Below, one piece after another: positions 3,238-54,015 of a DNA stretch of 64,000 bases (position 1 is its first letter; each line of letters begins with the position of its first letter). Source of the stretch: Candidatus Sericytochromatia bacterium (GTDB lineage: Bacteria; Cyanobacteriota; Sericytochromatia; S15B-MN24; JAQBPE01); contig JBBAPZ010000005.1 in assembly GCA_040400605.1 (NCBI GenBank), positions 64,001 through 128,000 on the forward strand. Reading direction: 5' to 3'. The notes beneath the pieces are model-generated. The model did not search any database. It was given only the letters and a program-made list of their open reading frames with translations, and was not told the DNA's origin. Made by a program: the position numbers and the translations under genes.

Positions 3238-3345
3238 TTTGTTAAATGGTTTTAGCATTCGGCGGGCGTTGGCACCATTGCGTGGTCTTTTTGCGCCATG
3301 ATGGTGCCGGAATCCGGGAGCCCGATCGGTCAATCTGATGGTTCC
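3238..3345 (-). repeat. Dispersed 108-bp intergenic element, copy C
   Basis: Reverse complement aligns without gaps to 38913-39020 (93/108) and 53908-54015 (90/108), counted by hand. Confidence 0.9.
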
Positions 3346-3368
3346 CTCATTGCTCTGAAACCAGGTGA

Positions 3369-3647
3369 TTAAAATTCCCCTTCCTCTGCGGCTTTCTTCG
3401 CGGCTGCATCAGCTTCCGCCTTCTTTTTGGCACGATCTTTCGCGTAAGCAAGGTAAATCGCCATGCCTTCACGGTACGTTTTTTGGGACCAAGCCCAAGC
3501 TGCCTTGAAGGGTCTAGGATCATGCTGATAGGCAACCCAGCCAGGAATGGCAAGAAACGGCAGACTGAAAATCCACAGAATAAAGACACTTTTCCAGCTT
3601 AAAACCGGCTTGGGGGCTTGATTGGCATTCGGTGCGCGACGAGCCAT
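3369..3647 (-). CDS. Small hypothetical membrane protein downstream of phnE
   Basis: 92-aa ORF with ATG, one hydrophobic segment and a charged helical tail. Co-oriented with phnDCE. Confidence 0.6.
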   Translation of the reverse strand: MARRAPNANQAPKPVLSWKSVFILWIFSLPFLAIPGWVAYQHDPRPFKAAWAWSQKTYREGMAIYLAYAKDRAKKKAEADAAAKKAAEEGEF

Positions 3648-3683
3648 TTTCGAAAACGTCCTGTCAAGATTGTGGTGGTGTTA

Positions 3684-4622
3684 TCAACTCACCAGGCGCC
3701 TGAGGCGGGCACTTGCGTAGTCAACGATCATGACCAGTAAAATGAGCACGGTGACGGTCATCGCGGCTTGCTGATATTGAAACATTCGAAAATCGGAATT
3801 CATAATAAAGCCAATGCCGCCGGCTCCAATCAACCCCAATACCGCTGCAGCACGGATGTTCGTTTCGAAACGATAGAGCAAAAATGAAACAAAAGCGGGC
3901 ATCACCTGTGGCACGACCGCGAAACTGACAATTTGTATGTAACGTGCACCCGTCGCACGGAGGGCTTCAACCACGCCTTCATCGATGCCCTCGATATTTT
4001 CAGCGAAGAGCTTGATCAATACAGTCGTCGTATGAAAGGCCAATGCCAAGGTGCCAGCAAAGGGACCGAGGCCAATGGCTGCAATCAGGATCAAACCCAC
4101 CGCAAAATCCGGTATGGTGCGTAAAAAGTTGGTAATCAACTTTAGCGAATGGTAGATCACAGGATGCGGACTGGTGTTTTGCGCAGCCAAAAAGGCTAAG
4201 GGGAAAGCGACCATCGCTGCCAAAAAGGTTCCAGCCAGAGCCATCTGGATTGTTTGGACAGTCGCGCCAATAATGGTTTGTGGAAAGGTGTTGACCCACC
4301 AGTAATCCTTGGCTGACATTTTTTCGGGGGAAAGTGGCATCGGGAGCATTAACTCCACGAACCCCAGTTCCTCTGGAACGTCGTAGACTTTAGGGTCGGT
4401 CACCCGCGTGTGGTCTGGCGGCAACATTCGCGACAAAGTGTCGACCATATTCGGTACACCCTTGGCGAGTTCTGTCAAATTCACTTGTACGCCTGAAAAA
4501 GACCAGACCAAGCTCCAAAGGATGATAGCGGCCAGTGCGATACGGCGTGCCCAGTCAATTCGAGGTGGTCTGGGCGGCGTTATTGCACGCGATTGGAGCG
4601 AATCGGTTGATGTTTGTGGCAT
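3684..4622 (-). CDS. phnE: Phosphonate/phosphite ABC transporter permease
   Basis: TIQMA..GT, RTIP, EAA-like EALRATGA and LYRFETNIR..AVLGLIGAGGIG motifs typical of PhnE. Confidence 0.9.
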   Translation of the reverse strand: MPQTSTDSLQSRAITPPRPPRIDWARRIALAAIILWSLVWSFSGVQVNLTELAKGVPNMVDTLSRMLPPDHTRVTDPKVYDVPEELGFVELMLPMPLSPEKMSAKDYWWVNTFPQTIIGATVQTIQMALAGTFLAAMVAFPLAFLAAQNTSPHPVIYHSLKLITNFLRTIPDFAVGLILIAAIGLGPFAGTLALAFHTTTVLIKLFAENIEGIDEGVVEALRATGARYIQIVSFAVVPQVMPAFVSFLLYRFETNIRAAAVLGLIGAGGIGFIMNSDFRMFQYQQAAMTVTVLILLVMIVDYASARLRRLVS

Positions 4623-4643
4623 GGTGATTGAGTTGACTCCTGA

Positions 4644-6403: not shown

Positions 6404-6509
6404 CCCTATCCCGATACGCCAATTCGACTTCGTGCAGTCAATTCAGCCATAAAGTGAACTGAACTGCTCTTACCCAAGCACGTGACATTTTTACCAAACT
6501 GGCAGTCAG

Positions 6510-6619
6510 GGAATCACCAGTTTCGCTGTTCAGACAACCGCCACCAGACCCTGACACCACGGTAACGAGACCGATTTCCACTGCTAAAACCCGCTTTACT
6601 GAAACAAACATTTAACGAA
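6510..6619 (+). repeat. Dispersed intergenic element, diverged copy D (ends conserved, middle different)
   Basis: Left end CAGGGAATCACCAGTTT vs copy B CAGGGAATCATCAGATT. Right end CAAACATTTAACGAACA vs CAAACGTTTAACGAACA. Length 110 vs 108. Confidence 0.65.
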
Positions 6620-6765
6620 CAAGCCGCGAGCTTGCTGAATGGGCTGTCAGGCGACGTCAAAAATGGCTTAACCGCAGCAATGGAGTCGTCTGATCTTCGC
6701 GTCTGCACCCGGAAACCTGGTTGGTTCATACCCTCAAGAACAGCACCTTGGACGTGCCGGTTTGC

Positions 6766-6821
6766 CCACCTTGCACACTGGACCCACTTTGAAGTCAAAG
6801 TGGGTCCAGTGTGCAAGGTGG
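6766..6821. repeat. Perfect 27-bp inverted repeat with 2-nt spacer (56-bp palindrome)
   Basis: CCACCTTGCACACTGGACCCACTTTGA-AG-TCAAAGTGGGTCCAGTGTGCAAGGTGG, read directly. Confidence 0.97.
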
Positions 6822-6875
6822 TTTAAAAACGTAATGACGATAACCGTTGCCACCGCAATAATCTGGTGAGCGCGC

Positions 6876-10246: not shown

Positions 10247-11995
10247 ATGCGCTACACTGCTTGGATGACCCTGGTGTTGACTGGTTGTTGCCTGGTTGGC
10301 ATCACACCCGACGAAGCGGCAGCCGCTGTGAACGGGTCTGCCTCAGAGTCCCTGTTTCGTGATGTCCCGACGGATCACTGGGCTGCAGCTGCGGTTCAGG
10401 CACTGGCAGCGCGTTACCGGGTGATGGAGGGGCAAAACGACGGCACGTTTCGCGGCGCCCGAACGGTGACCCGATATGAATTGGCTGCCGTGCTGGCCAA
10501 GGTCATGGTCCGTGTCGAAGAATCGTTGAATTCCGGAAGCTTGTCCTCCCGTGCCCTGGATAGCGGCATTTTGCCCGAGGATTTGCGCACCATCGCCCGC
10601 TTGCAGCGCGAGTTTCGTGATGAACTGGAGGTTTTGACAGGCCGCTGTGACACACTTGAAACCCGGGTGACGAGCTTGGAAAAGCGCGTGCGGGTTGGTG
10701 GTGAAACAGAGACGACCTGGCGTGATTTTAGCGGTTCGGCGCCTCAGGCGCGTGCGCCCTTGACCGAGTTTCGGGTGCGAAATCGGGTCAATCTTGAAGC
10801 TTCCGGTGCTGATAACCTGCTGATTCGTGCAAGCGCCTTTTGGGACCTTTATGGCCCGCGCGCCCAAGGAAACGCTTTTGCGCTGAACCCGTCCGGCTCC
10901 GAAGAATTATCTGAGTTTTACTTGCAGCGGGCATATGCCACCTATAGTCCGGATGGCATGACCCTAAGCGGGGGTATCGTCAATTTGAGTGAGGTCTTGA
11001 CCTTGGGAAGCACCTTGCCGCACGCCTTTGGTACGAACCTGTGGCGAGAGGGTGTGGGTGGTTACGGGTTTGTTGGAACCCCGGGTTTGGTTCGGGGTGA
11101 TGCCGGGTTGTCGATGGCACGCCTGGGCGGTGCGGAGTCAGCGGCCACGGCGCCTGTATGGTGGTTGCCGGGTACGGATGTGGTGAATCAGGCACTGGAT
11201 CCCAACGCGGCCCAGTGGTTGTACCCACGCGGTAATTTGACCGTGTGTGCGAAAGGCGATGCAGGTCCTTTCACGTTTGCCTTGGGGTGGTACCAGCCGG
11301 GCTTGACGGGACGAGACGTGAAGCGTCTGTTGGGTTTGGGTGCGCCGGGTAATTTTCATGGTCCTGAGCTTTATGTTGCCGGCCCTCAGATGGTCGGTCG
11401 TGTTGGAGCAGATTTCGGTTGGTTTCGCGCGCAGGTGGCTGCGAAGTCGCCGGGACATTTGTTGGATCAGCCCGGGCGTGCGGACAAAACCTTGAGCGCT
11501 TCGGTCGATCTGGGGAGTGACGCGTTCGGTTTAAATGTTCAGTCGGTGGCAAATTCAGCGTTTACAGGTCAATTTCAGTTGACGCAGACTGCGATGACCT
11601 TTGGCAGCACGGATTTGTGGGGTACGGGAATTGGACTTGCGTTGGCTGCCAATACCGGGGTGACGGTGTCCGGTGCCTCGGAGGTGCGCAACCTGTTTGA
11701 GGGTGGTTTGGCCGGCACGGATTATACATCCTACGGGTTATATTCGCGTTGGCCTGGGTTTAGCGGGTTGCCCTGGTTTGCGGTGGCTTTGCAGCAAACG
11801 GCCGGCGCGCAGTTTGGAAGCACGATCGGTTCGGGCGTGACCATTCAGACGGCCCTCCAGTTGTGGCGTTTGCCACAGCTACAGTTGGAGTACTCGCTGG
11901 GTAAATTCACGCCAGGTTTGGACAATGGTTTGATGAATAATGCTTCGGTGCAATCGCACGAGCAGTTGAGTGCGCAGATGGTGTTTCCGTTTTAG
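10247..11995 (+). CDS. S-layer-homology (SLH) domain outer-membrane porin-like protein
   Basis: Signal peptide, FRDVPTDHWA..AVQAL..RY, GTFRG..VTRYELAA, coiled coil EDLRTIARLQREFRDEL, C-terminal Phe. Confidence 0.85.
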   Translation: MRYTAWMTLVLTGCCLVGITPDEAAAAVNGSASESLFRDVPTDHWAAAAVQALAARYRVMEGQNDGTFRGARTVTRYELAAVLAKVMVRVEESLNSGSLSSRALDSGILPEDLRTIARLQREFRDELEVLTGRCDTLETRVTSLEKRVRVGGETETTWRDFSGSAPQARAPLTEFRVRNRVNLEASGADNLLIRASAFWDLYGPRAQGNAFALNPSGSEELSEFYLQRAYATYSPDGMTLSGGIVNLSEVLTLGSTLPHAFGTNLWREGVGGYGFVGTPGLVRGDAGLSMARLGGAESAATAPVWWLPGTDVVNQALDPNAAQWLYPRGNLTVCAKGDAGPFTFALGWYQPGLTGRDVKRLLGLGAPGNFHGPELYVAGPQMVGRVGADFGWFRAQVAAKSPGHLLDQPGRADKTLSASVDLGSDAFGLNVQSVANSAFTGQFQLTQTAMTFGSTDLWGTGIGLALAANTGVTVSGASEVRNLFEGGLAGTDYTSYGLYSRWPGFSGLPWFAVALQQTAGAQFGSTIGSGVTIQTALQLWRLPQLQLEYSLGKFTPGLDNGLMNNASVQSHEQLSAQMVFPF

Positions 11996-17325: not shown

Positions 17326-17789
17326 AGGATTTTTAAACAAATTTTTACGGGCAGTCGACATTTCATAGCGAAAAATCCCGAAAATCAAGTTATCGCTTGA
17401 TCGTTAACAGTTTTCGAGCCTCAAAACAATTTGGCGCAGTCGTGGAGGCAACGTGCATTGAAACAAGCATCCAGGGGGTGTTTCAAGCACATTTTGATTT
17501 TATGGATTGTCGAACAAGTGTTTTTCATCGTTGGGGATTATTGTCGGGCACAATGGCACAGCGAGCACACCAAGCGGCTCACAATCCAAAATGCCACACG
17601 CGCCCATCCATCAAATTTACTGCTTGTTTGTAAAAGTTTCGTTTCATTCAGCGGCCGGTGACACCAACGTTGCGCCTCTTTTGGGTCACCGAGCCATCGT
17701 AACCAGCCCGCCTGACCAGTGAAATTGGTGGTTCCCTCACGCGCTCAAGTGTTCGACACGATGATGGTGGCGGGTAGTATACTGGTGAT

Positions 17790-21104: not shown

Positions 21105-21956
21105 ATGACAAACCAAGCACTGAACCCACAGACAAAACACCAGCACAACGGCCAGGAAGCGGCCCCCTTCGTTAAGTGGGTGGGTGGCAAACGGGCATTG
21201 TTACCTGAGTTGGCAGCACGTTTTCCCAGGCGTTACAACCGCTATCACGAACCATTCGTTGGTGGGGGGGCGGTGTTCTTTTACCTGCAACCGGATCGCG
21301 CACGGTTATCGGATTATAACGCCGAGTTGATTACGACCTATCAAGTCATTCGTGACCGCGTTGAGGACCTCATCGCACACCTGCGCGGCCATCGGCACGA
21401 TGAAGAATACTACTACCAGGTACGTGCAGTCGATACATCGCAATTGGACGCCATTGAACGCGCCTCGCGGATGATTTTTTTGAATCGCACCTGTTTTAAT
21501 GGTCTTTATCGTGTCAATGCCAAAGGTGGCTTCAATGTCCCCTTTGGCAAGTACAAGAATCCCACCATCTGCAATGCCGACGGCCTGCGCGCCGCAAGCG
21601 ACGCGTTGCAAGGGGCGTACATCGCTCACGCCAGCTATACCAGCATTCTCGATACGGCTCGACCAGGTGATTTCGTCTATTTTGACCCACCTTACCATCC
21701 ACTCAATGCCACGGCTAAGTTCACGAGTTACACCGCGGACTCGTTCACGGAACGAAACCAGCGAGACTTGGCTGACACTTTCCGGGTTCTGGCCAATCGC
21801 GGATGCAAAGTCATGTTGAGCAATTCTGATACGCCGCTGATTCGTGATTTGTACGCAGACTTTAACCTTGAATTGGTCTACGCACCAAGACAGGTGAATC
21901 GGGATGCTTCCAAGCGGGGGCTAATCAGCGAGGTTCTCGTCCGTAATTACCGTTGA
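21105..21956 (+). CDS. dam: Dam-family (D12 class) DNA adenine methyltransferase, orphan
   Basis: KWVGGK, EPFVGGGAV, FNGLYRVN..G.FNVPFG, DPPY. Confidence 0.9.
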   Translation: MTNQALNPQTKHQHNGQEAAPFVKWVGGKRALLPELAARFPRRYNRYHEPFVGGGAVFFYLQPDRARLSDYNAELITTYQVIRDRVEDLIAHLRGHRHDEEYYYQVRAVDTSQLDAIERASRMIFLNRTCFNGLYRVNAKGGFNVPFGKYKNPTICNADGLRAASDALQGAYIAHASYTSILDTARPGDFVYFDPPYHPLNATAKFTSYTADSFTERNQRDLADTFRVLANRGCKVMLSNSDTPLIRDLYADFNLELVYAPRQVNRDASKRGLISEVLVRNYR

Positions 21957-32669: not shown

Positions 32670-35573
32670 CTAGTCAGGCAACGGAACACGCTTGATTTGG
32701 TTGTTCCAGATGTCGCCGATTACCAGGTGAGATTGCGCGTCCACTATCATGCTGGATGGCACACCGAGCGCATTCACACCGTAACGGTCACTCAGTATGA
32801 CTGCTCCCGGACCCGCGAGGTAATCAACCATCGGTTCGCTTGCTTTAAGGTCAATGCGTTGGATAGTCGGCATAATCGGGGGCAGTCCGGTAGGGAACTC
32901 GATACCGAGAGAACCCGCCAAACGGGTGAGGATTGTTCCAGCAGAGCCAATGTAGAGCCGATCCTCAGCGTCAACATGCACTGAAAATGGCAGGACCACG
33001 GCATCTTGGAGTGGTGTTCGCGCCGACGGCTTGAAGTCAGGGGTTTGCGTGACGATCGCCAGCGTCTCAATCAGTGCCTTGCCGATCAACGTTCGGGTCG
33101 TGCGTTGCGGATCATTCATGGCGACTCGCAACACCCGCATATTGCCTGTATCAGCGACATACAGATTACCTTTGCTGTCGAAGTCCAATCCCATAGGCGC
33201 ACGCAGTCGCATATCCCTGGCCGGACTCACAGCGCCCCCATCCGCCAAGGTACTGGATTGGCGTCCCGGTTCACCCACAATAACTTCAATTTGGCCATCG
33301 GGGTTGAGACGACATACGACGTTGTAGGTGAAGTCTGTCCAATAAGGGCGATCGTCTGATCCCACCACCATACTCCGCGCGTTACCAAAGCTTACTTGGG
33401 TAGCCGGCTTGCCAACGACATCAAATGGTTTGGCGGTTGCACTTAGTCCGTCGCCGGCCATCACATCGATCGCACCTTTGGGGTCGATGCGGAACAGGCG
33501 CGGGCGGTCCCCTGCCAGTACCCACAAGTTGCCCTGTCTGTCGTAATCCAACGCGGCGGGCGCTTGCAACTCGGTCAAGCGAGTTTCACCACCAAGACGG
33601 GCCTGTATCTCACCGCCATGCAGGACATCGACTTGGGCCCCTCGCAGGGCTTTGATCGTTCCCCCAGCCACCTCGGTGAACAAGAGTGTCTGGCGATCAG
33701 GCGACAAAGTGAGCCCCCCCGGCGCATTGACCGCCAAGGCCTGCGCCTGCCCAATCTGATTCAGGGCGAGAGAACCTGCCACTATGCGCGGTGGTGCATT
33801 TAAAGCGCCCAGATCGTATTCGTACACCAAGGCTTGCGCAGCAGCACACGCGATCAGCTTGTTCCCAAGGCCCAACACAGTGCCATTCAATGATTCATTC
33901 AACAAAAGCTGACGCGTTCCGGATGGACCCACGCGCCAGAAACGTTTGTTTCTTCCGGATTCGGCCACATACATGCCCCCCGCATCGTCCGGTCTTAAAT
34001 AGCCGCCGAAATCGGTGGTGATATAAATCTGATCAAGCATGACTTGCCAGGCTTTACTGATGGGATCAAGGCGCCACAGTGCGGCTTTGTTAAGGACCCA
34101 GAGTGCACCATCCGATGCAACGCCAACAGACAGGAATAATTGACTGGTCAGGGCAGGCGGGCTGTCCACGCGATGCATCAAGCCATCTGTATCCAAACGC
34201 AACAAACGGTTCTCGTCTGTCAGATAGATGGTGCCATCTTCAGCCAACGCCACGCCCCTTGGATTGTTAAGTGGGCTCTCCGTGGCCCGAGCAGGAAGTT
34301 CGCCCTGCCCGGCTTGTCCGGTGCCTGCCAAAATCTTGACCCGTTTGTCCGGCGTGATTCGAATCAGCCGGTTGCCCTGTGGCTCACTCAAAACCAGGCT
34401 GCCATCCGGTTGCGCAATCAAATGCTGAATGCCAGAAAAACCCACTAATTCAGCATCTGCATCCTGCGTGGCCGTGACCTCCCACCGTTCGCCAGCATAA
34501 GTCGAGATAACGCCCGCTGGTGTCACTTTGCGAATGCGTCCGACCGCCTCGGCGATGTAGAGATTGCCTTGCGCATCTTGTGCAACATCGACTGGCAGAC
34601 CCAAGGGAACCTGGTTTGCAGGCAGGCCTGAACCCAGGTTTTCTTGACCCAGTAGCAACAGGGCTTTGACGGTTTCGAGCGTCTGATTGAGGCTTTCATC
34701 CGCCCGGCGCAAATCGGTCACCGCACTGCGGATGTTGTCCTCATCGTAGTTCGGTCGTGTTTTCAGCAACTTTCGCGCCGCATTCACATCACGCAATAGC
34801 GCCGTATTGACTTCCGCCGACATCCGATTAAGGACCGTGTTGTTGCCCTTCACGTATTCGCCGAGCACATAACCACTTGCCAGCGAGCTGCTCGTATCGA
34901 TGGGAACGTTCAGCTGCGCCTGATTGGGAATCAATAACGCACGCAACTCGCCTTGTTCGCCGCCGACATCACGCAACAGGCGCACACGCAACACGGCGTT
35001 TGCTTTGGGCAAAGTGGCACTCAGCGTGTATTCACCATTTTGATTCGAAACTGCCTGAATCGGATTGCCATCGGCAGCCTTCAGCGGTTGGCCTGACGCA
35101 TCGACGACCTCGATCAGTGCTTCTGCCAAACGGTCTTCTGGCGCCGCGTTTTGAGACAACAGGCGATATGCCTTATTCAAGGCGCCTGCACCATTGTTGG
35201 ATATGAGACCAGTGCCTTGCGTGACCAAACCTGCCCCGTTGTTTGAGATCAAGTTGCCACTGTTGTTGGAGATGATCCGCCCGGTTTCTTGGGGTATTCC
35301 CCCCGCGCCATTGTTTGCCAGTAGTTTGACGCCAAAGTCGGTCGTCAGTCGCACCACTCCCCGCACCGTTAACTGGATGCTTGCTTGATTGGGGTTGTCC
35401 AAAGGGTTTACCTTGACGGTCGAGGTTCCGTTGCCAGCCGATTTCGGCAATTTGCTCACGCCAGGCAAAGCATTTTGGCAGCCAAGCAACAATAGGCACG
35501 AGAGGATCGCAACACTGCCCAGGCGCCTGTTGCGTGATTGGGGCAGGCCAGGAAACTGTGATTCTCGATTCAT
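32670..35573 (-). CDS. Large NHL-repeat beta-propeller lipoprotein with Asn/Gly repeats (paralog 1)
   Basis: Lipobox LLLGC, IISNNSGNLISNNGAG repeats, many NHL blades (P.GL.FDSKGNLYVADTGNMRVLRV). Confidence 0.85.
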   Translation of the reverse strand: MNRESQFPGLPQSRNRRLGSVAILSCLLLLGCQNALPGVSKLPKSAGNGTSTVKVNPLDNPNQASIQLTVRGVVRLTTDFGVKLLANNGAGGIPQETGRIISNNSGNLISNNGAGLVTQGTGLISNNGAGALNKAYRLLSQNAAPEDRLAEALIEVVDASGQPLKAADGNPIQAVSNQNGEYTLSATLPKANAVLRVRLLRDVGGEQGELRALLIPNQAQLNVPIDTSSSLASGYVLGEYVKGNNTVLNRMSAEVNTALLRDVNAARKLLKTRPNYDEDNIRSAVTDLRRADESLNQTLETVKALLLLGQENLGSGLPANQVPLGLPVDVAQDAQGNLYIAEAVGRIRKVTPAGVISTYAGERWEVTATQDADAELVGFSGIQHLIAQPDGSLVLSEPQGNRLIRITPDKRVKILAGTGQAGQGELPARATESPLNNPRGVALAEDGTIYLTDENRLLRLDTDGLMHRVDSPPALTSQLFLSVGVASDGALWVLNKAALWRLDPISKAWQVMLDQIYITTDFGGYLRPDDAGGMYVAESGRNKRFWRVGPSGTRQLLLNESLNGTVLGLGNKLIACAAAQALVYEYDLGALNAPPRIVAGSLALNQIGQAQALAVNAPGGLTLSPDRQTLLFTEVAGGTIKALRGAQVDVLHGGEIQARLGGETRLTELQAPAALDYDRQGNLWVLAGDRPRLFRIDPKGAIDVMAGDGLSATAKPFDVVGKPATQVSFGNARSMVVGSDDRPYWTDFTYNVVCRLNPDGQIEVIVGEPGRQSSTLADGGAVSPARDMRLRAPMGLDFDSKGNLYVADTGNMRVLRVAMNDPQRTTRTLIGKALIETLAIVTQTPDFKPSARTPLQDAVVLPFSVHVDAEDRLYIGSAGTILTRLAGSLGIEFPTGLPPIMPTIQRIDLKASEPMVDYLAGPGAVILSDRYGVNALGVPSSMIVDAQSHLVIGDIWNNQIKRVPLPD

Positions 35574-35616: not shown

Positions 35617-35725
35617 CGAACCATCAATGTCACTGCTCGGTTGAACTGTCTCGAGTGGACGTTCAAAGCAGATGCACCACGGCCCGCCGATACGAACCGC
35701 TTTTTTGAAACGAACAGTTAACGAA
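35617..35725 (+). repeat. Dispersed intergenic element, diverged copy E
   Basis: Starts CGAACCATCA and ends AACAGTTAACGAA, 109 bp. A 32-nt block at the right end matches copy D at 27/32. Confidence 0.6.
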
Positions 35726-35793
35726 GAACCGACAAAGATTCTTGACGGCTGATTGAATGCAGGCATGTGATCAAGAAGGCAGTGGTCAGTGGA

Positions 35794-38700
35794 TCAAAAC
35801 CCTGCTGGCAGCGGTGCCATTTTGATCTGGTTATTGAGGATGTCAGCCACAACGAGCCGTGATTGCTTGTCAATGAGCAACGCACCGGGCGCACCGAGAC
35901 TGTTCAGTCCGTAGCGTTCCTCAAAAATTTTGCCGTTGGGGCCAGCGAGCAATTCGAGCGTGGGTTCATTTGACTTGAGGTCAATCATGCGCACGCACGC
36001 ACTGACCAGCGGCAATTTGATGGGGAAATTGAATTTTGCGAGGCTGGAGGCCTGGTCGAGTCGAACGGTACCCAATTCACCCAAAAACAGGCGATCGCGC
36101 GCATCGATGAACATCGGACCGGGTACGACAATGAGTGCGTCCTTGGCAGCGATACGGGCTGGAATCTGAACCGCGCCATCTTGTTGCAGGCTGCCCAGTG
36201 TCTCGAACAATGAGCGGCCGACCAGTGTGTTCACCAGCCGTTCCGGGCTTTGCATTGACACTTTCAGTACCCGCATGTTTGCGGCATCGCTGAGATACAG
36301 GTCGCCCTTGCTGTCAAACCCAAGGCCATAAGGCATATTGAGTTGCATCTCGCTTGCAGGCTTGTTGCTGCCGTCATTGCCGGGTTTGTTGGGCAGGCTG
36401 CCGTTAGCGCCAACGATCAACTCGAGGCGACCATCCGCGTTGAGGCGACAAACGTGATGATAAACCATGTCCGTCCAGTAGGGCAGGCCATCTGGTCCGA
36501 GCTTGAGCGCAACCGGTTGGCCTAAAGGAACGTCGAGGGCGGACTTGCCTTCGATGTTGAATGCGACACCACGGTAGGTGGTGCCACTGCCCGCCATCAG
36601 GGTGGCTCGTCCTTGGGGATCGATGCGCACCAATTGCGGATCGTCACCAATGAAAGCCCAGAGATTTCCTTGGGCATCATAATCGACGGCGACAGGCGCA
36701 ATGGTTGTTACGGTGCGTTCAGCACCGTTAGCATTAACCGTTAAGGTGTTGCCCAGAATCGTGCTGACCGTTTGATTCTGAAATCGCTTGATGACGGCCC
36801 CCACCACTTCCGTGTAGAGCAACCCTTGCCCGTCCGGCGTCGATGCCATGCCACCCGGAGCATTGACGCCCAATGCCTGCGAAGAACCTGTTACAAAAAC
36901 GCTTTGGGTACCAGCTACCGTACGGGGTAACGTATTGGCGTCGTTGAGATCGAATTCGCGGATCAACCCACCCGCGTCACAAACCAACATCTTGTTATCG
37001 GGTCCGATCCAGAAACCAAACGGTTGCACGACACCACGAAGCGTTTCCAGGTTGGTTGGTTCACTGCCGGTCAGGCCAATCGGCGCAAGCGTTACATTGG
37101 TTTGGGCATCTGGGGCCACGTGCAAAATTTTGAGTTGGCCGGCCATCGACAGATAAACCCCACCTCGCGAATCCGGTTGCAGGTAGCCACCCAAACCCAA
37201 GTCCAAATCGACTGCCATCTGACGCCACGTCAAACTGGCTGGATCCCGTCGCCACAAGCTATAACCGTTCGCAGCCCACAACGCGCCATCTGAACCGAAA
37301 CACAGACACTTCGCACCGGTTTTGTCACCGTCGAAAGGGTTGCTGACAAAGTGCAGGATGCCACTGCGATCCAGACGCAACACACGATTCTTTTCTGTCA
37401 GGTAGATATCGCTATCCGGTGACAGCGCAAGCCCTTCCGGGTAAAGCAGACGGGTCTGCTTAGCCGGCGCAGGCAGCGTGTCTTGGCCTGGTTCACCGGT
37501 TCCGGCAGCGAATTTGACCCGTCCGTCGCTTGTGATGCGAATCAGGCGGTGCCCGAGTCGCTCAGTGAACAAGAGGCTGCCATCCGGTTCGATGACCAGG
37601 CGGTGGATATTCTTGAAACCGACTTCATTGGCACTCACACCTTCTTGCACGGGTTTATCCCATTGCTCGCCCGCATAGGTTGAAATGATGCCATCTGAGC
37701 CAATCTTGCGAATCCGGCCGACTTGCTCCGCGATCAATAGATTGCCGGCGGGATCGCGAACCACATCCACCGGCAAGGTCAACGGCACACGCGTCGCACT
37801 CATACCACTGCCGAGATTCTCTTGCCCCACCAGCAATAGCGCTTTGACCTTCTCAAGGGTACGATCCAGCGTCGCATCCGATTGCCGCAAGTTTGCCACC
37901 ACGGAACGCAAGCCGCTTTCATCATAATTCGGTTTGTCTTTCAACAATTGCCGTGCAGTGTTGACATCACGAAGCAACTCGGCATTGGCATCCGCTGGAA
38001 GCCGGTTGAACACCTCCTGACGACCCTTGACGTACTCACTTAACACATAACCGGTGGCCAAGGAACTGGCCGTATCAATGGGTGCATTGATTTCACGGGG
38101 CTCCGTGCCCGGTACCACCATGGTTCGCAGCTCACCATTGGCGCCTCCAAGTTTGGCCAGCAAGCGCACACGCAAGATGAAGTTGTCTTTGGGCACCGTG
38201 GCGCTGAGCGTATACTCACCGGTTTTGGACGTTTGAACCTGGATTGGTTTTTTGCTCGCGTCCAGCAGCAACTCGCCACTGGCATCAACCGCTTCCACCA
38301 GCGCTTCCGCCAACCGATCCTCCGGTGTCACCGCCTCGGACAGCAGCCTGAACGGTCTGGCTGTCAAACCACCACCGTTGTTGGAGACCAGCCCACCACC
38401 GTTATTTGAGACCAAGCCGCCACTGTTGTTGGATACCAAGCCACCGCCGTTGTTTGACACCAGATTGCCACTGTTGTTCGAAATGATGCGTCCGGTTTCA
38501 CCGGATACGGTGCCGCCGCCGTTATTGGAAACCAGATTGACCCCAAAGTCGGTGGTTAACCTTACCACCCCGCGCAAAGTCATGCGAACGCCATTTTCAA
38601 CCACCCGGCCACTCAGACTTTGGGTCGAGACGCCTTTGGCTTGGGCGCGAACGGCTGATGGCCGCGATGCCTTTACAACCGCCATTTGGGTCTGACACCC

Positions 38701-38811
38701 ACTCAGCGCCAAAAGTGCAGCCAGCCAACCTGTTAACCAACGTTTGCTCGCTTGCAAGGGGGTTCCTCCACGGATCACGATTGCGCGTAACGCTGTCCGC
38801 ATCCACGACAA
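35794..38811 (-). CDS. Large NHL-repeat beta-propeller lipoprotein with Asn/Gly repeats (paralog 2)
   Basis: Lipobox ALSGC. Colinear with paralog 1 (RGVVRLTTDFGV, PEDRLAEAL, GQENLGSG, DI.NNQIK). Confidence 0.85.
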   Translation of the reverse strand: MSWMRTALRAIVIRGGTPLQASKRWLTGWLAALLALSGCQTQMAVVKASRPSAVRAQAKGVSTQSLSGRVVENGVRMTLRGVVRLTTDFGVNLVSNNGGGTVSGETGRIISNNSGNLVSNNGGGLVSNNSGGLVSNNGGGLVSNNGGGLTARPFRLLSEAVTPEDRLAEALVEAVDASGELLLDASKKPIQVQTSKTGEYTLSATVPKDNFILRVRLLAKLGGANGELRTMVVPGTEPREINAPIDTASSLATGYVLSEYVKGRQEVFNRLPADANAELLRDVNTARQLLKDKPNYDESGLRSVVANLRQSDATLDRTLEKVKALLLVGQENLGSGMSATRVPLTLPVDVVRDPAGNLLIAEQVGRIRKIGSDGIISTYAGEQWDKPVQEGVSANEVGFKNIHRLVIEPDGSLLFTERLGHRLIRITSDGRVKFAAGTGEPGQDTLPAPAKQTRLLYPEGLALSPDSDIYLTEKNRVLRLDRSGILHFVSNPFDGDKTGAKCLCFGSDGALWAANGYSLWRRDPASLTWRQMAVDLDLGLGGYLQPDSRGGVYLSMAGQLKILHVAPDAQTNVTLAPIGLTGSEPTNLETLRGVVQPFGFWIGPDNKMLVCDAGGLIREFDLNDANTLPRTVAGTQSVFVTGSSQALGVNAPGGMASTPDGQGLLYTEVVGAVIKRFQNQTVSTILGNTLTVNANGAERTVTTIAPVAVDYDAQGNLWAFIGDDPQLVRIDPQGRATLMAGSGTTYRGVAFNIEGKSALDVPLGQPVALKLGPDGLPYWTDMVYHHVCRLNADGRLELIVGANGSLPNKPGNDGSNKPASEMQLNMPYGLGFDSKGDLYLSDAANMRVLKVSMQSPERLVNTLVGRSLFETLGSLQQDGAVQIPARIAAKDALIVVPGPMFIDARDRLFLGELGTVRLDQASSLAKFNFPIKLPLVSACVRMIDLKSNEPTLELLAGPNGKIFEERYGLNSLGAPGALLIDKQSRLVVADILNNQIKMAPLPAGF
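38368..38487 (-). repeat. Five tandem 24-bp coding repeats encoding (L/I)(V/I)SNN(G/S)G(G/N)
   Basis: Units start at 38368, 38392, 38416, 38440 and 38464 and differ mostly at synonymous sites. Confidence 0.9.
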
Positions 38812-38912: not shown

Positions 38913-39020
38913 GGAACCATCAGATTGACCAATCGGTCTGCCTGAGTCCTGCACTTTCATGACGGAAAAAGACCACGCAATGGTGCCACCGACCGCCGAA
39001 TGTTAAAAACATTTAACGAA
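38913..39020 (+). repeat. Dispersed 108-bp intergenic element, copy A
   Basis: Ungapped alignment to copy B (87/108) and copy C (93/108). Confidence 0.9.
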
Positions 39021-46759: not shown

Positions 46760-47935
46760 TTACGGTTTTTGGATTGTCACCTCGACGGTGTTGGTTTGGT
46801 TTGCTAGCAGGCTGACGGTTTGTTGTTGGGGAATGAAACCCTTTGCGCGCGTGAAAAGGGTGTAGTCGCCCGGGTTGAGATCCGGGGCACGGTAGTTACC
46901 TTCGCTGTCGGTTTTGGCGTTGATGACGGGTAGCATGTCGTTGGCTGGGACCCATTCGAGGTTTGCGCCCATAACGGGTTGATTCTGAGGGTCCGTCACG
47001 TGGCACACAACGCCTGCGCGATTGAGTTTGGGTTCAATTATTGGCAGCGATTTTTTGGGCTTGATGCGGCTTGGGGGTTCCTCTTGCGGCACTTGGTGTT
47101 GTGTTTGATCTGACACGTCTAACCTGGGGGTCGCGATGTCGCCCTGGCTGCTTGGTGTTGGTTTGCGTCGCGTTTCAGGCTGGGTGTGATCACCCGTGTG
47201 CGTGTCAGGTGGTGCCTTGGGTGACGGCTCCGCCGCTGGATGACTCGTTTCACCGGTCAGTGGGTGTGGGGCATCCTTTGGGTGAATTGTTGCACGGGGT
47301 ATCGGGTGCGGGGCGCTCGTTGGAACGTTCTGCTCACGGGTAATGCTGCTGGCGTTTCTTGCTTGTGGTGGGAGTGGCAGGCCGTTGTTGTTTGGCGCGG
47401 CTTCTGGCTGGGCGAAAACGGGTAGCCCGGCGAAGGGTGATCGGGGGGCTGTTGGCGACGTTGCAAGTGGCGCGGTGTTGTCCTTTGCATTTGATTTAAG
47501 GTTTTGGATACTGGCTTGGTGGGCAGCCCAGGTTTTTTGTACGGCACGGTTGGCGCTGGAAGCATCTCGCCCGGGGCCGACCAGATGGCTGGTGCCTTTA
47601 AGGAGGAGCGGCAAGGGGCCAGAGGGTGCTTTGGGTGGCGGTGATGATGGGGCGGCGGGTGTTGGCACGGTTTCCCATGGCAGGCTTTCATTAAACAGGT
47701 TGTCCAGCGGTGTGGTGCGACGATGACGCCAGAACGTGTCGCTGCTGAGGCTGCGGGTGTCGGGTGGCGGTGGTTGGGTTGGCGGTGCGGTCGTGGTGGG
47801 TGTTGTGTCTGGATCAGACTGGGTGCCAGATTGGCCGCGCTGGCCTTGTTGGTCGTAGCGACCGATGACCCCCTCACCGGTGAGGGGGTTGGGGCGGTTG
47901 GACGGATTGAGGGGTGTGAACTCCGTGGACATCAA
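46760..47935 (-). CDS. Pro/Thr-rich protein with C-terminal carboxypeptidase-regulatory-like (CnaB-type) domain
   Basis: Long low-complexity region, then VTDPQNQPVMGA...TDSEGNYRAPDLNPGDYTL...AKGF. Confidence 0.7.
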   Translation of the reverse strand: MMSTEFTPLNPSNRPNPLTGEGVIGRYDQQGQRGQSGTQSDPDTTPTTTAPPTQPPPPDTRSLSSDTFWRHRRTTPLDNLFNESLPWETVPTPAAPSSPPPKAPSGPLPLLLKGTSHLVGPGRDASSANRAVQKTWAAHQASIQNLKSNAKDNTAPLATSPTAPRSPFAGLPVFAQPEAAPNNNGLPLPPQARNASSITREQNVPTSAPHPIPRATIHPKDAPHPLTGETSHPAAEPSPKAPPDTHTGDHTQPETRRKPTPSSQGDIATPRLDVSDQTQHQVPQEEPPSRIKPKKSLPIIEPKLNRAGVVCHVTDPQNQPVMGANLEWVPANDMLPVINAKTDSEGNYRAPDLNPGDYTLFTRAKGFIPQQQTVSLLANQTNTVEVTIQKP

Positions 47936-48044
47936 TGCGCCTCAAGTGGTCTTCGTGTGATTGCTATTCCTCATCACGAGGTCGTTTCATTCGAGTCTAG
48001 GCCCTCCACCGCGACGATTGTTCCATCGAAATGCCTGGCGGCCT
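47832..48044. repeat. 213-bp direct repeat, copy 1
   Basis: Matches 49520-49732 without gaps (offset 1688), about 8 mismatches by hand count. Confidence 0.95.
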
Positions 48045-48084
48045 GCTCGACAAGCTGGTCCTCAGTGTATGCGTTGGGGCTCAT
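47974..48084 (-). pseudogene. Chimeric 36-aa ORF: HsdR-like N-terminus fused to the duplicated C-terminus of the 82-aa gene
   Basis: MSPNAYTEDQLVEQ|AARHFDGTIVAVEGLDSNETTS with an ATGA overlap on the yhcG stop. AYTEDQLVEQ recalls type I HsdR N-termini. Confidence 0.65.
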
Positions 48085-49184
48085 GCATCCTCCACTTGGG
48101 TTTCGTCTGCCAATGCCTGCTCGATTGATTCGATACTGGGCAGGCTTGTTTGCAACTCAGCCGGGAGCGCACGGGTCAGTTCAAACGCCGAGACGCCGAT
48201 CGGTTTGTCGATGCCACGCAGCGCATATTCTGCCAGCACGCGATTGGGCTGTTGGCATAAAATCAGGCCAATGGTCGGTGCATCGCTCGAATGGCGCAAG
48301 TGGTCATCAACCACATTGCAGTAAAAGTTCACCTTCCCTGCGTATTCAGGTTTGAAATCGCCGCGTTTTAGATCAATCACCACAAAACACCGCAACTTCA
48401 AATGGTAGAACAACAGGTCGATATAGAAGTCTTGCCCGCCGAGATCCAAGTGGTACTGTCGGCCGACAAAAGCAAAACCTTGCCCAAGTTCAAGCAGAAA
48501 CTTTTCCAGATGGACAACGAGGCCAGTCTCAAGCTCCTTTTCGTGGAAGCCTGCGGTGAGCGTGAGAAAGTCGAAAATGTACGGGTCCTTGAGCGTTTGT
48601 TGGACCAGATCGGACTCAGGCGGCGGCAAGCGCATAGCGAAGTTGCTGGTGGTCTTACCCAGCCTGTGATGCACAGCCGACTCGATTTGCATCACCAAAA
48701 TGTTGCGGCTCCAGCCATGCTCGACGGCGGCCTGCATGTACCAAAGTCGCGTTACGGGGTCTTTTACCTTAGCCATCAACTCGGCGTGATGGCCCCAGGG
48801 CAGCGCCATTAGGAGATCCGTCGAGAAAAGTGCCGCTGACTGTGGCACTTTTACAGCCGACTCCGTTTGTGCCACAGGCTGTGGCACAAAGTTCAAGTAG
48901 GAATACTCGCGGTAGAAGGCCAGCATGCGCTTGATGTTGCGCTCGGAAAACCCTTTTTCCTCAGGCAGTTCGTTATGAAGGTCGCGGGCAAGACGGGGAA
49001 TCACGCCCGAGCCCCAACCTTCCTGTTGCTGGCGCTGGTGAATCAGGCCACCAATGTCCCAGTACAGGCGGATCAGCTCCGCATTCACTGCCAGTACGGC
49101 ACGTGATTGGGCATACCGCACACGCGTCTTGATTTCCGCCAGCAACGGACCGTAAACAGCGGGTAAGGGGGTTGCGTCAGTCAT
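48081..49184 (-). CDS. YhcG/DUF1016 family PD-(D/E)XK nuclease-like protein
   Basis: VNAEL..LYW.IG, GFSERN...M..FY, KDPYIFDFL, FLLELGQGFAFVGRQ, IDLLFYH..LRC.VVIDLK. Confidence 0.93.
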   Translation of the reverse strand: MTDATPLPAVYGPLLAEIKTRVRYAQSRAVLAVNAELIRLYWDIGGLIHQRQQQEGWGSGVIPRLARDLHNELPEEKGFSERNIKRMLAFYREYSYLNFVPQPVAQTESAVKVPQSAALFSTDLLMALPWGHHAELMAKVKDPVTRLWYMQAAVEHGWSRNILVMQIESAVHHRLGKTTSNFAMRLPPPESDLVQQTLKDPYIFDFLTLTAGFHEKELETGLVVHLEKFLLELGQGFAFVGRQYHLDLGGQDFYIDLLFYHLKLRCFVVIDLKRGDFKPEYAGKVNFYCNVVDDHLRHSSDAPTIGLILCQQPNRVLAEYALRGIDKPIGVSAFELTRALPAELQTSLPSIESIEQALADETQVEDA

Positions 49185-49356
49185 AACAATGCCCTTTAGC
49201 CAGATTCGCGCCCAATTCGGAGGGGATCCAACAAACTGTCAGACGATTTTGCAAAATGTACAAGTCTTCCCTTATACCAGTGCGTCTGTTAAGTGATCAG
49301 CCAGATAGCAGCCTGCGCAACAAGTTGGCCTGCGGTGTCGGCGTGGTTCATCTTTT

Positions 49357-49620
49357 TTAGCTTCCCACGATTGCAACAAAAAAGTCGCTATTGCTCCCGT
49401 AAGATTCACTGCCAATGCTACGCGCCTCTTCGCGGGCTTGGTTCCGGCTGAGCTTGCCCCGATTTGGTGGACAGATGATTAAGCAACTTGCCGGATGATT
49501 CCGACGTTCTTTACCACAATGGCCGCGCTGGCCTTGTTGGTCGTAGCGGCCGATGACCCCCTCACCGGTGAGGGGGTTTTGGCGGTTCGACGGATTGAGG
49601 GGGGTGAACTCCGTGGACAT
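49357..49620 (-). pseudogene. Truncated duplicate of the 5' end of the 46760-47935 gene
   Basis: First about 33 codons nearly identical (MSTEFTPLNPSNR.NPLTGEGVIGRYDQQGQRG), then unrelated sequence beyond the repeat boundary at 49520. Confidence 0.75.
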
Positions 49621-49732
49621 CGCTGTGCCTCAAGTGGTCTTCGTGTGATTGCTATTCCTCATCACGAGGTCGTTTCATTCGAGTCTAGGCCCTCCACCGC
49701 GACGATTGTTCCATCGAAATGCCTGGCGGCCT
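49520..49732. repeat. 213-bp direct repeat, copy 2
   Basis: Matches 47832-48044. Confidence 0.95.
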
Positions 49733-52900: not shown

Positions 52901-53647
52901 GCCTTCCCGTTTGAGATCGAACTGATTGTCAAGCACGGCGCGCGCACCCAACGACAAGGTGCCGCCCCCCACAAAAGCCCCCGCTGCCAGCAACGGAACC
53001 CCAATCGGTGCACCAATGCCCGAGACGCTCAAGGCCACGCCAGCCATGACCGCCACGCCTGCCGCCATATCGCCCGCTACACCCGACCAGAACTTGTTGC
53101 CTGCAGACGCCTCTCCAAGCGCCTTGTCATAGGCGTTCACCCTGGTTTGTGCCTTTCGCAGGGCGGATTGCAACCCTCGCTCGGCATCCGGTTGACCGGA
53201 GGCAACCTGCTTCCGGTACGTGCGCAACGCATCGGATAACTCGTGTGCCATCGCGGATTGGGCTGCTGCGCGGGCTAGACCCAGACGGTCCTGCTGACCT
53301 CCAAACCGATTGACGACCTGGTTGAAACCCCGGGCCACGGCGTTACCGCTCAGGACCTTGCGATTCGCTTCATTCAGTTGGGCCACTTTGGCCTGCAGTT
53401 CGGCTGCCTGCCGTTCGAGATCAGGGGTATCAGATTTTTTTGCTGGTCTGCCGGCGACCGGGTAGGTCGCCACGGGATCGCGTCTGGCGTGTTGGTTGCG
53501 GGTTGTTCCTGCGAAGTGGTCGGCCACGCGACTGGATGCGGACTGTACGTGGCGGTTGACCACCACCGAAGGACCAACCACCATTGAACGGCGGTCGGGA
53601 ACCTGGCCCAGTGGTCTTTCAACCTTGCTCAAACGCCCTTCCCCCAA
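49910..53647 (-). CDS. Large candidate polymorphic toxin with C-terminal zincin metallopeptidase
   Basis: N-terminal coiled coil, long Gly/Ala-rich hydrophobic region, polar linker, helical region, HEMAH (HExxH) at 50285-50299 and downstream TEVMSMGME. Start codon uncertain. Confidence 0.7.
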   Translation of the reverse strand: MGEGRLSKVERPLGQVPDRRSMVVGPSVVVNRHVQSASSRVADHFAGTTRNQHARRDPVATYPVAGRPAKKSDTPDLERQAAELQAKVAQLNEANRKVLSGNAVARGFNQVVNRFGGQQDRLGLARAAAQSAMAHELSDALRTYRKQVASGQPDAERGLQSALRKAQTRVNAYDKALGEASAGNKFWSGVAGDMAAGVAVMAGVALSVSGIGAPIGVPLLAAGAFVGGGTLSLGARAVLDNQFDLKREGLAVFAVGGVGGLGAAVTGGASSAVTSGVARQAARMVGQQAVEGSVGRAVIGASTQAIVGAGFGGTTSGAQAIASGEKLDGVLRATALGAAGGAVGGVAATGVGAGLSRGASALSRGAVHNDTLARAIAASQSRLGRAAGTVASGSVAGASAGGTAAAVNQLASGQALDPASLRNQIVAGALQGGVTSGAGRAIAGRLRQSAPVTPTEEHPPGSNANNDAGVLAETPRTGNPARENPPTETAPNNQAPLTDSFPTGPQNNKQRSSAQQATAPGRAKKSPIDRQPDTGRATGSRSLNELAAKASQIQDIQTQRNEIEQTISLMTAQFDERHRGWRERNPQGTRSAQDPEPQRPPELDRLRNETKRLLEQQKAIHSAVREGVKALVKQTGSQDMTAQLALAPANVRKTLLREYMRAYSNGDDLRGLQYFFYDDSGLQQLHNSPPALKNTYKNLVNKKEFDWQDHYTDLVERYESAWMQQAEARATLYQNRTPAMRLEQTQAQGRFEAAKRDLLAFAAQEFPELQRKELAHLVGDLKEKHAIDSLSRQMTNQTLAEYLAHFPEGTSQFKVIDLISNHRYMVGLRIERAKKTGHGTAALPIKVLQDFESRSLADCEPVLARLWGTTKAKSFLKPPTTTIEEFLGLWREHATIEQLGGLLASHRDFVRQAVAKGERIPDEVLNQYFEFAKGPKLPAGEGANAVINAVKRHHDRFVRIEAQKKALEQRITALQSELASHSDTHRANDHAMENSALQQTPELVALRRRSERLQAQFEQLQRDARTEIKSLITSSGKAQYTAHFDPEIPDSDRQAYQAGLEAYAAIAGARAGHRHVVVRKHPDNANERSNHSNATMTISMDPGASGDARRQIQTMVHEMAHGLELEAPDIVRETGQFVLDHTLDQAIPLNDAYGHVAPGVSLGYRDDEMTRVIKPGTKAIWDPYLARAYRKDGSNQPAEKLDDLHATEVMSMGMEQLHRDPFAFIRDHPEHFRIIWKLLRAQEEH

Positions 53648-53907
53648 CGTAAGCCCCAGCTTGACGGGTCTTCCAACTAACGCTTCCCTGACTGGTATTC
53701 TCGTGACGGCGTTTGCTTGATGACAGCGAGGCGCAGCCTGATAAACTGGGTTGCCACCAAATCTTGAACAGAAACCGATGCGTTACCGTGTCGCTTGCCA
53801 GGGCGCGGCAGAGTCCGTTTACCGCTTTTCAAGGGCGGGGGGCTCACAACGTGCCTCTTTATTTTTTACCCTTGTCAAAGATGGGCAAAACGAGGCACCA
53901 TGCTCAG

Positions 53908-54015
53908 GGAATCATCAGATTAAGCGTTCGGTCTACCGGATTTCGGCACCATCACGACGCAAGAACACCACGCAATGGTGCCAGCAACCGCCGAATGCTA
54001 CAAACGTTTAACGAA
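53908..54015 (+). repeat. Dispersed 108-bp intergenic element, copy B
   Basis: Ungapped alignment to copies A and C; the core ACCACGCAATGGTGCCA is invariant in all three. Confidence 0.9.

Follow-up and report, generated by a model that had tools for sequence, protein, structure and literature searches.

Three close copies of an unannotated 108-bp intergenic repeat lie within a 64,000-nt stretch of a Candidatus Sericytochromatia genome (hereafter called the window), and they raise the question of what kind of element has been dispersed there. An earlier note on this DNA proposed that the repeat is either mobile but non-autonomous or a family of structured RNAs. The mobile identity is borne out by inverted ends, 9-bp target-site duplications, and many copies, whereas the RNA identity finds neither an Rfam match nor a consensus fold. 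We conclude that the repeat is very probably a 133-bp MITE with imperfect 21- to 23-bp terminal inverted repeats, likely moved in trans by a DDE-type transposase that was not found in the assembly.

Several of the initial observations are reproduced. The three copies align without gaps over 108 nt at 81 to 86% identity (nhmmer E ~1e-38), with values of 86% for the pair 3238-3345/38913-39020, 81% for 38913-39020/53908-54015, and 84% over 112 nt for 3236-3347/53906-54017. Copies 1 and 3 carry a perfect internal palindrome, GGCACCAT...ATGGTGCC, which in copy 2 is partial, as had been described, and a comparison of 55 ORFs of the window with Pfam revealed no transposase domain. However, the 3′ boundary had been placed about 23 nt short, and both the terminal inverted repeats and the target-site duplications were therefore reported as absent. 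Approximately 21 to 23 nt past the 3′ limit of the 108-nt unit, the 5′ end is repeated in inverted form. Two of the three copies helped to hide this repeat, given that truncation has left copy 2 without it, while copy 3 has lost part of it by deletion.

When this sequence is included, the whole unit spans about 133 bp, corresponding to 131 model positions plus 2 outer nucleotides. The terminal inverted repeats are imperfect and 21 to 23 bp long, and the 21 nt that follow the original 3′ boundary correspond to the reverse-complemented 5′ end in nearly every copy listed. For copy 1, the last 23 nt form an imperfect inverted copy of the first 23 nt. Watson–Crick pairs occupy 1151 of 1832 cells when 23 end positions are compared in 82 copies. 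The 5′ end reads (GG/CC)AACCATCA(AT/GA)TT(C/G)AC(C/T)GATC and the 3′ end reads ATC(A/G)GTCAATCTGATGG(A/T)TGG, with a conserved GATC in one end only (52 of 82 copies). Copies fall into subfamilies whose interiors barely align, and conservation among them is limited to the ends and a subterminal block, ATTTAACGAACA. At 133 bp the unit is too short to encode a transposase, and single-base gaps between subfamilies disrupt any common reading frame. The sole scanned window ORF that spans a copy (53713-54138) has no Pfam match.

A search with the nhmmer model identifies seven copies in the window, rather than the three to five previously estimated (Table 1). Two of them lie near the starts of paralogous NHL-repeat genes: the copy at 35619 is 46 nt from the start of the gene at 32670-35573(-), and copy 2 is 104 nt from the start of the gene at 35794-38811(-).

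Table 1. Copies of the element and their flanking 9-mers in the window.
Feature	Position	Strand	Model match	Score	Remarks
Copy 1, full length	3215..3345	-	1-131	77.6 bits	5′ terminal inverted repeat 3323-3345; 3′ terminal inverted repeat 3215-3237
Copy 1 target-site duplication, 3′ side	3206..3214				9 bp; AGCAATGAG on minus strand; exact 9/9 repeat of 3346-3354
Copy 1 target-site duplication, 5′ side	3346..3354				9 bp; AGCAATGAG; exact 9/9 repeat of 3206-3214
Full-length copy	6511..6642	+	1-131	86.3 bits	Another subfamily than copy 1
Flanks of 6511..6642	6502-6510; 6643-6651				GCAGTCAGG; GCTGTCAGG; 9-mer match 8/9
Full-length copy	17604..17735	-	1-131	67.6 bits	Boundary ambiguous by 1 nt
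Flanks of 17604..17735	17736-17744; 17595-17603				GCGCGTGAG; GCGCGTGTG; 9-mer match 8/9
Diverged copy	35619..35735	+	1-118	36.9 bits	Without 3′ inverted repeat
Copy 2, truncated	38913..39020	+	1-108	52.1 bits	Without 3′ inverted repeat
Copy 3, extended	53908..54029	+	1-131 in 120 nt	53.1 bits	3′ inverted repeat partly deleted (ends ...ACATCGGATGGGTGG)
Old, shortened copy	62210..62320	-	1-131 in 109 nt	33.4 bits (E 1.3e-7)	Both ends kept

The exact duplication that flanks copy 1 is part of a genome-wide pattern. Among the 78 full-length copies, 50 are bordered by a 9-mer direct repeat with at most two mismatches, compared to a mean of 3.3 in 100 shuffles of flank pairs, and 31 carry a repeat with at most one mismatch (mean of 0.67 in 100 shuffles). 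An independent k-mer test recovers a common 7-mer in 30 of 78 copies against a mean of 3.1 and a maximum of 9 in 200 shuffles. The dominant offset is constant. The 31 best duplicated 9-mers have a G+C content of 58%, close to the genome value of 56%, and present no target consensus. Thus, the preference for AT-rich targets that is typical of many MITEs does not hold here.

A duplication left by a 9-bp staggered cut, in combination with inverted ends, points to cut-and-paste or copy-and-paste movement of the DDE type. This result bears on the proposal that the word GTTAAAY at one end resembles the core site of a tyrosine recombinase. That word is located within the subterminal block ATTTAACGAACA rather than at the terminus, and the link to tyrosine recombinases is not sustained. 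A related possibility is that the repeats are recombination sites for a tyrosine recombinase or an integron, given that a word similar to the RYYYAAC of attC sites (ATTTAAC) is conserved near one end. However, the word is subterminal and has no inverted partner, since the 5′ end carries ATTTCAC in direct orientation. Moreover, the copies do not form arrays with cassettes but are spread across many contigs, and their flanking duplications vary in sequence, such that we find this identity scarcely credible.

The expectation that many more copies exist genome-wide proved accurate. A converged nhmmer search with the 131-position model yields 122 copies in the 3.71-Mb genome, dispersed over many contigs, and these copies of about 130 bp amount to approximately 0.4% of its sequence. 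The end motif, when searched with up to two mismatches, occurs 200 times, compared to 4 times in the reversed genome. Even though ORFs of at least 90 amino acids account for 87% of the genome, 92 of the 122 copies overlap such ORFs by less than 30 nt. For several contigs a copy is found within a few hundred bases of the start, and the repeat may therefore break the assembly at these points.

Copies are distributed unevenly among intergenic spacers and relative to one another. Promoter-side spacers are preferred, with 47 copies located in divergent spacers versus 15 in convergent ones, whereas the genome totals of such spacers are nearly equal (446 divergent and 439 convergent). Where two copies are adjacent, the pair is arranged head-to-tail in 14 of 14 cases. 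The identity between adjacent partners is only 44 to 67%, and a separate 9-bp duplication borders each of them, which indicates that they are separate insertions. In several instances the duplicated 9-mer is itself a piece of the neighbor's 5′ end: ATCAGATTC (contig C11, position 10393), AGGAACCAT (C3, 49736), and GGCGGAACC (C5, 39038).

One mechanism consistent with these footprints is that a transposase would bind both ends and excise or copy the unit, which would then be inserted at a 9-bp staggered cut whose repair yields the duplication. New copies would preferentially insert next to or within the 5′ end of a copy already present and adopt its orientation, creating head-to-tail arrays.

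The positional bias could also be read as a sign that the repeat is a structured non-coding or cis-regulatory RNA, either as its primary identity or through later use of a MITE, in which the strand opposite to the orientation used in the earlier note would be transcribed and form a long hairpin that affects neighboring genes. The preponderance of divergent over convergent spacers agrees with this reading, as does the orientation of copies in co-directional spacers, where the opposite strand is sense with the genes in 37 copies and not in 18 (p=0.014). The opposite strand also folds better, with z values of -4.02 versus -2.45 for copy 1, whose ends pair in the predicted fold, and -1.87 versus -0.05 for the copy at 17604. 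Likewise, A.C combinations, which would become G.U pairs on the opposite strand, account for most mismatches between the ends (233 cells, against 60 of G.T). However, roughly four alignment columns that are inherited within subfamilies give rise to this A.C excess, which is hence not independent evidence, and the copy at 6511 folds no better than shuffled sequences (z of +0.35 and +0.44). Rfam returns only a tRNA for the window at gathering score, and the element has no match even at E<=1. The structure predicted by RNAalifold for 82 copies is empty on both strands, with only the terminal stem appearing within subfamilies, and the mutual information is dominated by subfamily structure and reveals no helix. 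Scans for promoters and terminators found none inside the two copies scanned (3215 and 6511), and RNA genes do not make 9-bp target duplications. Given these findings, we regard an RNA identity or RNA reuse as quite unlikely.

High copy number, intergenic location, hairpin formation, and clustering are also expected of palindromic elements of the REP/REPIN type or derived from IS200/IS605, which are mobilized by a Y1 (HUH) tyrosine transposase. Indeed, the genome encodes one Y1_Tnp protein (C105:1929-2261; 50.7 bits), and its gene is flanked by a 26-nt inverted repeat. However, this 26-nt repeat is confined to its own contig and is unrelated to the MITE, whose model finds nothing on that contig (best E 0.32). 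Y1 transposition is not known to leave a target-site duplication, whereas 9-bp duplications are present here and their 9-mers lack a consensus. In addition, the clusters are uniformly head-to-tail, in contrast to the alternating arrangement described for BIMEs (PMC2817692). An origin of this type is therefore very improbable.

The properties of the repeat instead correspond to those by which MITEs are defined in a review (PMC10969869), namely a length below 500 bp, inverted ends of roughly 4 to 30 bp, flanking direct repeats, multiple copies, and intergenic location. Small size, inverted ends, direct repeats, the lack of an internal transposase gene, multiple copies, and mostly intergenic placement are all observed, and together they underlie our assignment. 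As MITEs constitute a well-known class by that same account, the implied novelty of the repeat falls away, and the element is ordinary selfish DNA rather than a new kind of element.

One close counterpart is MITEAba12 of Acinetobacter baumannii, which PMC6382973 describes as short (113 bp versus 133 bp here) and non-coding, with imperfect terminal inverted repeats and a 9-bp duplication, based on the same three criteria. In contrast to the present family, MITEAba12 is 78% A+T, prefers AT-rich targets (targets here are 58% G+C), has 16-bp ends instead of 21 to 23 bp, and is present in few copies per genome rather than 122. It resides with a parent, ISAba12, whose ends match, and a jump has been seen, whereas we found no such parent and observed neither a jump nor an empty site (5 of 122 loci).

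Other MITE families resemble this one in abundance and location. As outlined in PMC10969869, the Correia elements (NEMIS) of Neisseria and the ERIC elements of enterobacteria exceed 100 copies per genome, are intergenic and often just upstream of genes, comprise subtypes with common ends, and give transcripts that form long hairpins. They have no sequence relation to the element reported here and occur in a different lineage, and Correia elements carry sigma-70-like promoters and an IHF site, whereas the two copies scanned here contain no promoter-like site. QMITE2 of Coxiella burnetii, from the same source (PMC10969869), is similar in having direct repeats of 7 to 9 bp, inverted ends of 23 to 29 bp, a core of 113 to 145 bp, 78 copies, and many truncated copies. 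Its host and sequence differ, and it is found mainly in 3′ untranslated regions, whereas promoter-side spacers are preferred here. The tandem arrangement recalls the IS30 tandem dimers and inverted-repeat targeting covered in PMC9333248, which are likewise head-to-tail with abutted ends. However, those dimers consist of identical copies and arise by a copy-out-paste-in route, unlike the diverged, separately inserted neighbors seen here.

A MITE of this kind implies a transposase acting in trans, yet no parent insertion sequence with the same ends was found in the assembly, in 40 relatives, in 400 genomes of the phylum (end motif), or in one metagenome scan. The assembly does contain IS4, IS5, IS1634, and ISH3 transposases, an IS256 fragment, and a weak rve match. 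The element ends are absent from the inspected transposase loci (three small transposase contigs and a locus on C10), and models for IS1, ISL3, DDE_Tnp_4, and DDE_3 have no match in the assembly. Likewise, no orphan end pairs at the spacing of an insertion sequence occur in the genome. Because the assembly is 94.6% complete and consists of 174 contigs, the parent could be unassembled.

One candidate, an IS3-family element, was rejected. In a genome of the same family (G007), an end resembling the MITE 3′ end at 27 of 33 positions lies 175 nt past an rve transposase gene. However, full copies of this insertion sequence in two other genomes (G009 and G011) end about 105 nt earlier and lack the motif, such that the two sequences are coincidental neighbors. 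Furthermore, the genome under study has no homologue of the G007 transposase (best E 0.35).

Comparisons among copies and with relatives suggest that the family is old. Identity reaches 92% for the most similar pair of copies and has a median of 83% between nearest neighbors, and no near-identical copies are present in the family. In a relative that is approximately 93 to 95% identical, all five examined loci of the 122 are occupied (one judged by a single junction only), and this sample contained no empty site. Taken together, the family looks old and inactive, and it is probably no longer moving. With neither empty sites nor near-identical copies, mobility is inferred from footprints rather than observed.

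The family also appears to be specific to this one lineage. Its end motif occurs 109 times in this genome compared to 0 to 8 times per genome in 400 others of the phylum. In a genus of the same class (g17), whose genomes have 5 to 8 end-motif matches each, none of 30 loci contains an element according to the MITE model, and the end motifs are never paired in an element-like arrangement. Two genomes of the same family hold related sequences that are not amplified, which are a unit of about 58 nt with similar ends as read by eye (G006) and a partial unit (G007). No similarity was detected in a plasmid collection, and a metagenome scan with a 28-nt 3′-end pattern returned eight loci, all 99.5 to 99.97% identical to contigs of the same genome, and therefore these give no new context. 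An exact 17-mer produced 104 single matches in unrelated phyla, but we estimate this to be about chance level, and the MITE model finds nothing there beyond the seeded word.

We also considered a more elaborate scenario, in which the family is a self-targeting, methylation-gated MITE that has been reused as a 5′-leader element throughout a lineage of non-photosynthetic relatives of cyanobacteria. The transposase would have directed insertion specifically to the 5′ end of copies already in place, giving rise to the uniform head-to-tail pairs, and the host would have kept copies on the promoter side in one orientation, with the opposite-strand transcript serving as a regulatory hairpin. Through the GATC present in one end, transposition would have been tied to both Dam methylation and replication, in the manner of IS10. 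We view this combination as unlikely, but if it is true, then the family would be more than decayed selfish DNA.

As far as literature searches went, no MITE family had been on record for this uncultured lineage, and the repeat provides one. For annotators of this genome, short ORFs across copies are probably spurious. Finally, the head-to-tail order of clustered copies and their bias toward promoter-side spacers provide a modest, testable entry point to how targets are chosen and to possible regulatory reuse of the element.

The three intergenic copies of the 108-bp repeat claimed in the earlier note align without gaps at 86% identity (copies 1 and 2, 3238-3345(-) and 38913-39020(+)), 84% (copies 1 and 3, 3236-3347 and 53906-54017), and 81% (copies 2 and 3, 38913-39020 and 53908-54015). 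A profile built from these copies recovers each of them from the genome (3.71 Mb, 174 contigs, 55.9% G+C) at E ~1e-38, along with 25 further places at E<=1e-3. The repeat is genuine and could not have arisen by chance. However, its boundaries were first drawn too short. When the DNA past the 3' boundary is listed for all copies, an extra block, ATC(A/G)GTCAATCTGATGG(A/T)TGG, appears beyond the conserved ATTTAACGAACA. Read as its reverse complement, the block matches the 5' end, (GG/CC)AACCATCA(AT/GA)TT(C/G)AC(C/T)GATC. Therefore, contrary to the initial description, the element has terminal inverted repeats, which comprise 21 model positions and a further two bases on the outside and carry fixed mismatches at about five positions.

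A 131-position nhmmer model of the extended unit finds 115, 121, 122, 122, and 122 copies over five rounds and so converges at 122, of which 78 are full-length; seven copies lie within the window. The 17-nt end motif (<=2 mismatches) occurs 200 times in the genome versus four times in the reversed genome. The 82 copies with few gaps sort into four subfamilies (39, 16, 10, and 6 copies) and 11 clusters of a single copy. The subfamily interiors are barely alignable, and the first ~25 nt and last ~40 nt are common to all, as expected if constraint acts only on transposase-binding ends. The internal palindrome GGCACCAT...ATGGTGCC is present as reported previously and is confined to one subfamily.

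Target-site duplications, said earlier to be lacking, are evident in the flanks of most full-length copies. A 7-mer is common to both flanks at a fixed offset in 30 of the 78, compared to a mean of 3.1 and a maximum of 9 in 200 shuffles of flank pairs. Edge 9-mers are repeated perfectly in 9 copies, with one mismatch in 22, and with two in 19. This amounts to 50/78 at <=2 mismatches (3.3 in shuffles) and 31/78 at <=1 mismatch (0.67 in shuffles). In the dominant register, the left repeat lies two bases ahead of model position 1, with its right counterpart immediately past position 131, and the full element is therefore 133 bp. No consensus emerges from the duplicated 9-mers, whose G+C content is 58%. 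Copy 1 provides a clean example (see table). Both the ends and the duplications escaped the first reading because copy 2 extends only to model position 108 and the 3' repeat of copy 3 is partly lost.

These duplications contradict the proposal that the repeat is a structured RNA family, for which there is also no Rfam match, even at E<=1, and no consensus structure from RNAalifold on either strand. They likewise contradict an attC-like site, as do the dispersal of the copies and the direct orientation of the AAC/CAC words. The element is small and multicopy, ends in inverted repeats, duplicates its target at a fixed length, and is too short to contain a gene; it is also mostly intergenic: 92/122 copies overlap by <30 nt with ORFs of >=90 aa, which make up 87% of the genome. 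The same features define MITEs, the miniature transposable elements with inverted-repeat ends, in PMC10969869, and MITEAba12 (PMC6382973) was recognized by these criteria and likewise has 9-bp duplications. Given the inverted ends, fixed-length duplication, and many copies, the earlier suggestion of a mobile element was right, although the repeat belongs to a well-known class and its supposed novelty does not hold in that sense. In the likely mechanism, both ends would be recognized by a DDE-type transposase provided in trans, which would insert the unit at a 9-bp staggered cut. Duplications of 9 bp are typical of the IS1, IS4 (IS10, IS50), IS5/IS903, IS256, and ISAs1 groups.

Locations of transposase loci and other features (window coordinates unless a contig is named)
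Feature	Location	Remark
MITE copy 1	3215-3345	GGAACC...GTTTGG; flanked by AGCAATGAG at 3206-3214 and AGCAATGAG at 3346-3354
D12-class adenine methyltransferase gene	21105-21956	
NHL-repeat genes	32670-35573(-), 35794-38811(-)	tandem paralogues
MITE copies upstream of NHL-repeat genes	35619-35735, 38913-39020	without 3' repeat
219-nt direct repeats	47826-48044, 49514-49732	95% identical
DUF1016/YhcG PDDEXK nuclease gene	48081-49184(-)	between the direct repeats
IS4-family transposase	C147	own inverted ends, unrelated to those of the MITE
IS5 transposase	C161	
IS1634 transposase	C10	
ISH3 transposase	C158	
IS256-like fragment	C28	36 residues
Weak rve match	C3	
Y1 (HUH) transposase	C105:1929-2261	~230 aa, single in assembly; 26-nt inverted repeat on both sides, only on that contig

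The MITE ends are absent from every inspected transposase locus of the assembly, models for IS1, ISL3, DDE_Tnp_4, and DDE_3 have no match in it, and no pair among 47 orphan end motifs lies at insertion-sequence spacing. Because the assembly is 94.6% complete, the parent may simply be unassembled. A Y1-transposase (REP-like) origin is contradicted both by the target duplications and by the repeat around the sole Y1 gene, which is unrelated to the MITE. That gene has a RAYT-like layout, though without an amplified REP family to go with it. An IS3-family parent was also considered, based on a 33-nt match to the MITE 3' end located 175 nt past a transposase gene in the same-family genome G007. This lead was rejected because the same insertion sequence in genomes G009 and G011 ends ~105 nt earlier, without the motif.

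Fourteen pairs of copies are <=200 nt apart, 12 of them within 30 nt, and all 14 are arranged head-to-tail. The partners are only 44-67% identical and thus represent separate insertions, not local duplications. An end motif occurs within 45 nt downstream of 18 of the 97 copies whose 3' end is intact (background 1.6% per such window), and three of the duplicated 9-mers derive from the 5' end of a neighbouring copy. Therefore, new arrivals tended to land at the 5' end of a resident copy or within that end. The two NHL-repeat genes each have an upstream copy at about the same place, and these copies probably arose by duplication of gene and copy together, not by two insertions. Elsewhere in the window, the direct repeats and the nuclease gene that they enclose (47826-49732) have the appearance of a small module that was inserted or duplicated.

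By spacer type, 47 copies are divergent, 55 co-directional, and 15 convergent, compared to 446, 1575, and 439 spacers in the genome as delimited by crude ORF picks. Orientation within co-directional spacers is biased (37 versus 18, p=0.014). The favoured strand folds better, and on it most mismatches between the ends become G.U pairs (233 A.C versus 60 G.T cells), an excess traceable to a few inherited positions. GATC, the Dam site, is found in the 5' end of 52/82 copies and in no 3' end. Across the genome, the observed/expected ratio is 0.11 for CTAG, a strong avoidance, and 1.26 for GATC, a slight enrichment. The spacer, strand, and 5'-end GATC features allow for a regulatory or methylation-linked role, without showing one.

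Full-length copies have a mean pairwise identity of 68%, a median nearest-neighbour identity of 83%, and a best pair at 92%. Three public freshwater runs (X5, X6, and X9) contain contigs of a relative that is 92.8-95.5% identical, as judged from the longest pieces of X5. In this relative, both junctions are covered at window sites 3215 and 17604 and at C18:19618, the whole copy plus 20 nt beyond at 6511, and the right junction only at C18:14314. All five loci examined, including two of the best-conserved copies, are occupied, and no empty site was found among them. The family is older than the split from this relative, and there is no sign of recent movement. Beside copy 1, 233 nt (2914-3146) are swapped for 64 other letters in the relative (X5), and the 97-aa ORF at 2854-3147(-) is therefore variable and perhaps no gene. 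At C18 ~11732-11852 (L175), many contig ends and short joints accumulate in the relative's runs, which suggests another repeat family; the MITE model has no match there. Several contigs of the assembly start within a few hundred bases of MITE copies (C5:79-199, C25:77-208, C46:218-345, and C33:316-444), and thus the repeat probably adds to assembly fragmentation.

When one copy was compared by BLAST to 40 relatives, a sample without another member of the genus, only two short end-like matches were obtained. The end motif (<=1 mismatch) occurs 109 times in this genome (0 for a backwards-pattern control), versus 0-2 times per genome in 26 others of the order and no more than 8 times in each of the 400 phylum genomes sampled; the genus with 5-8 matches has no element. 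A 28-nt 3'-end pattern retrieves eight contigs from metagenomes, each with 99.5-99.97% identity to this genome. A full-text literature search returned nothing relevant on inverted-repeat transposable elements of Sericytochromatia or on the MITE end words. Two same-family genomes carry related pieces, namely a ~58-nt unit with similar inverted ends in G006 (L002, C7 ~1496-1553) and an incomplete element directly beside an IS3-family copy in G007 (L116, C94 1497-1600). Relatives of the MITE ends thus exist outside the genus, unamplified. As a family, the repeat itself is new and restricted to its lineage, and the class to which it belongs, the MITEs, is well known.
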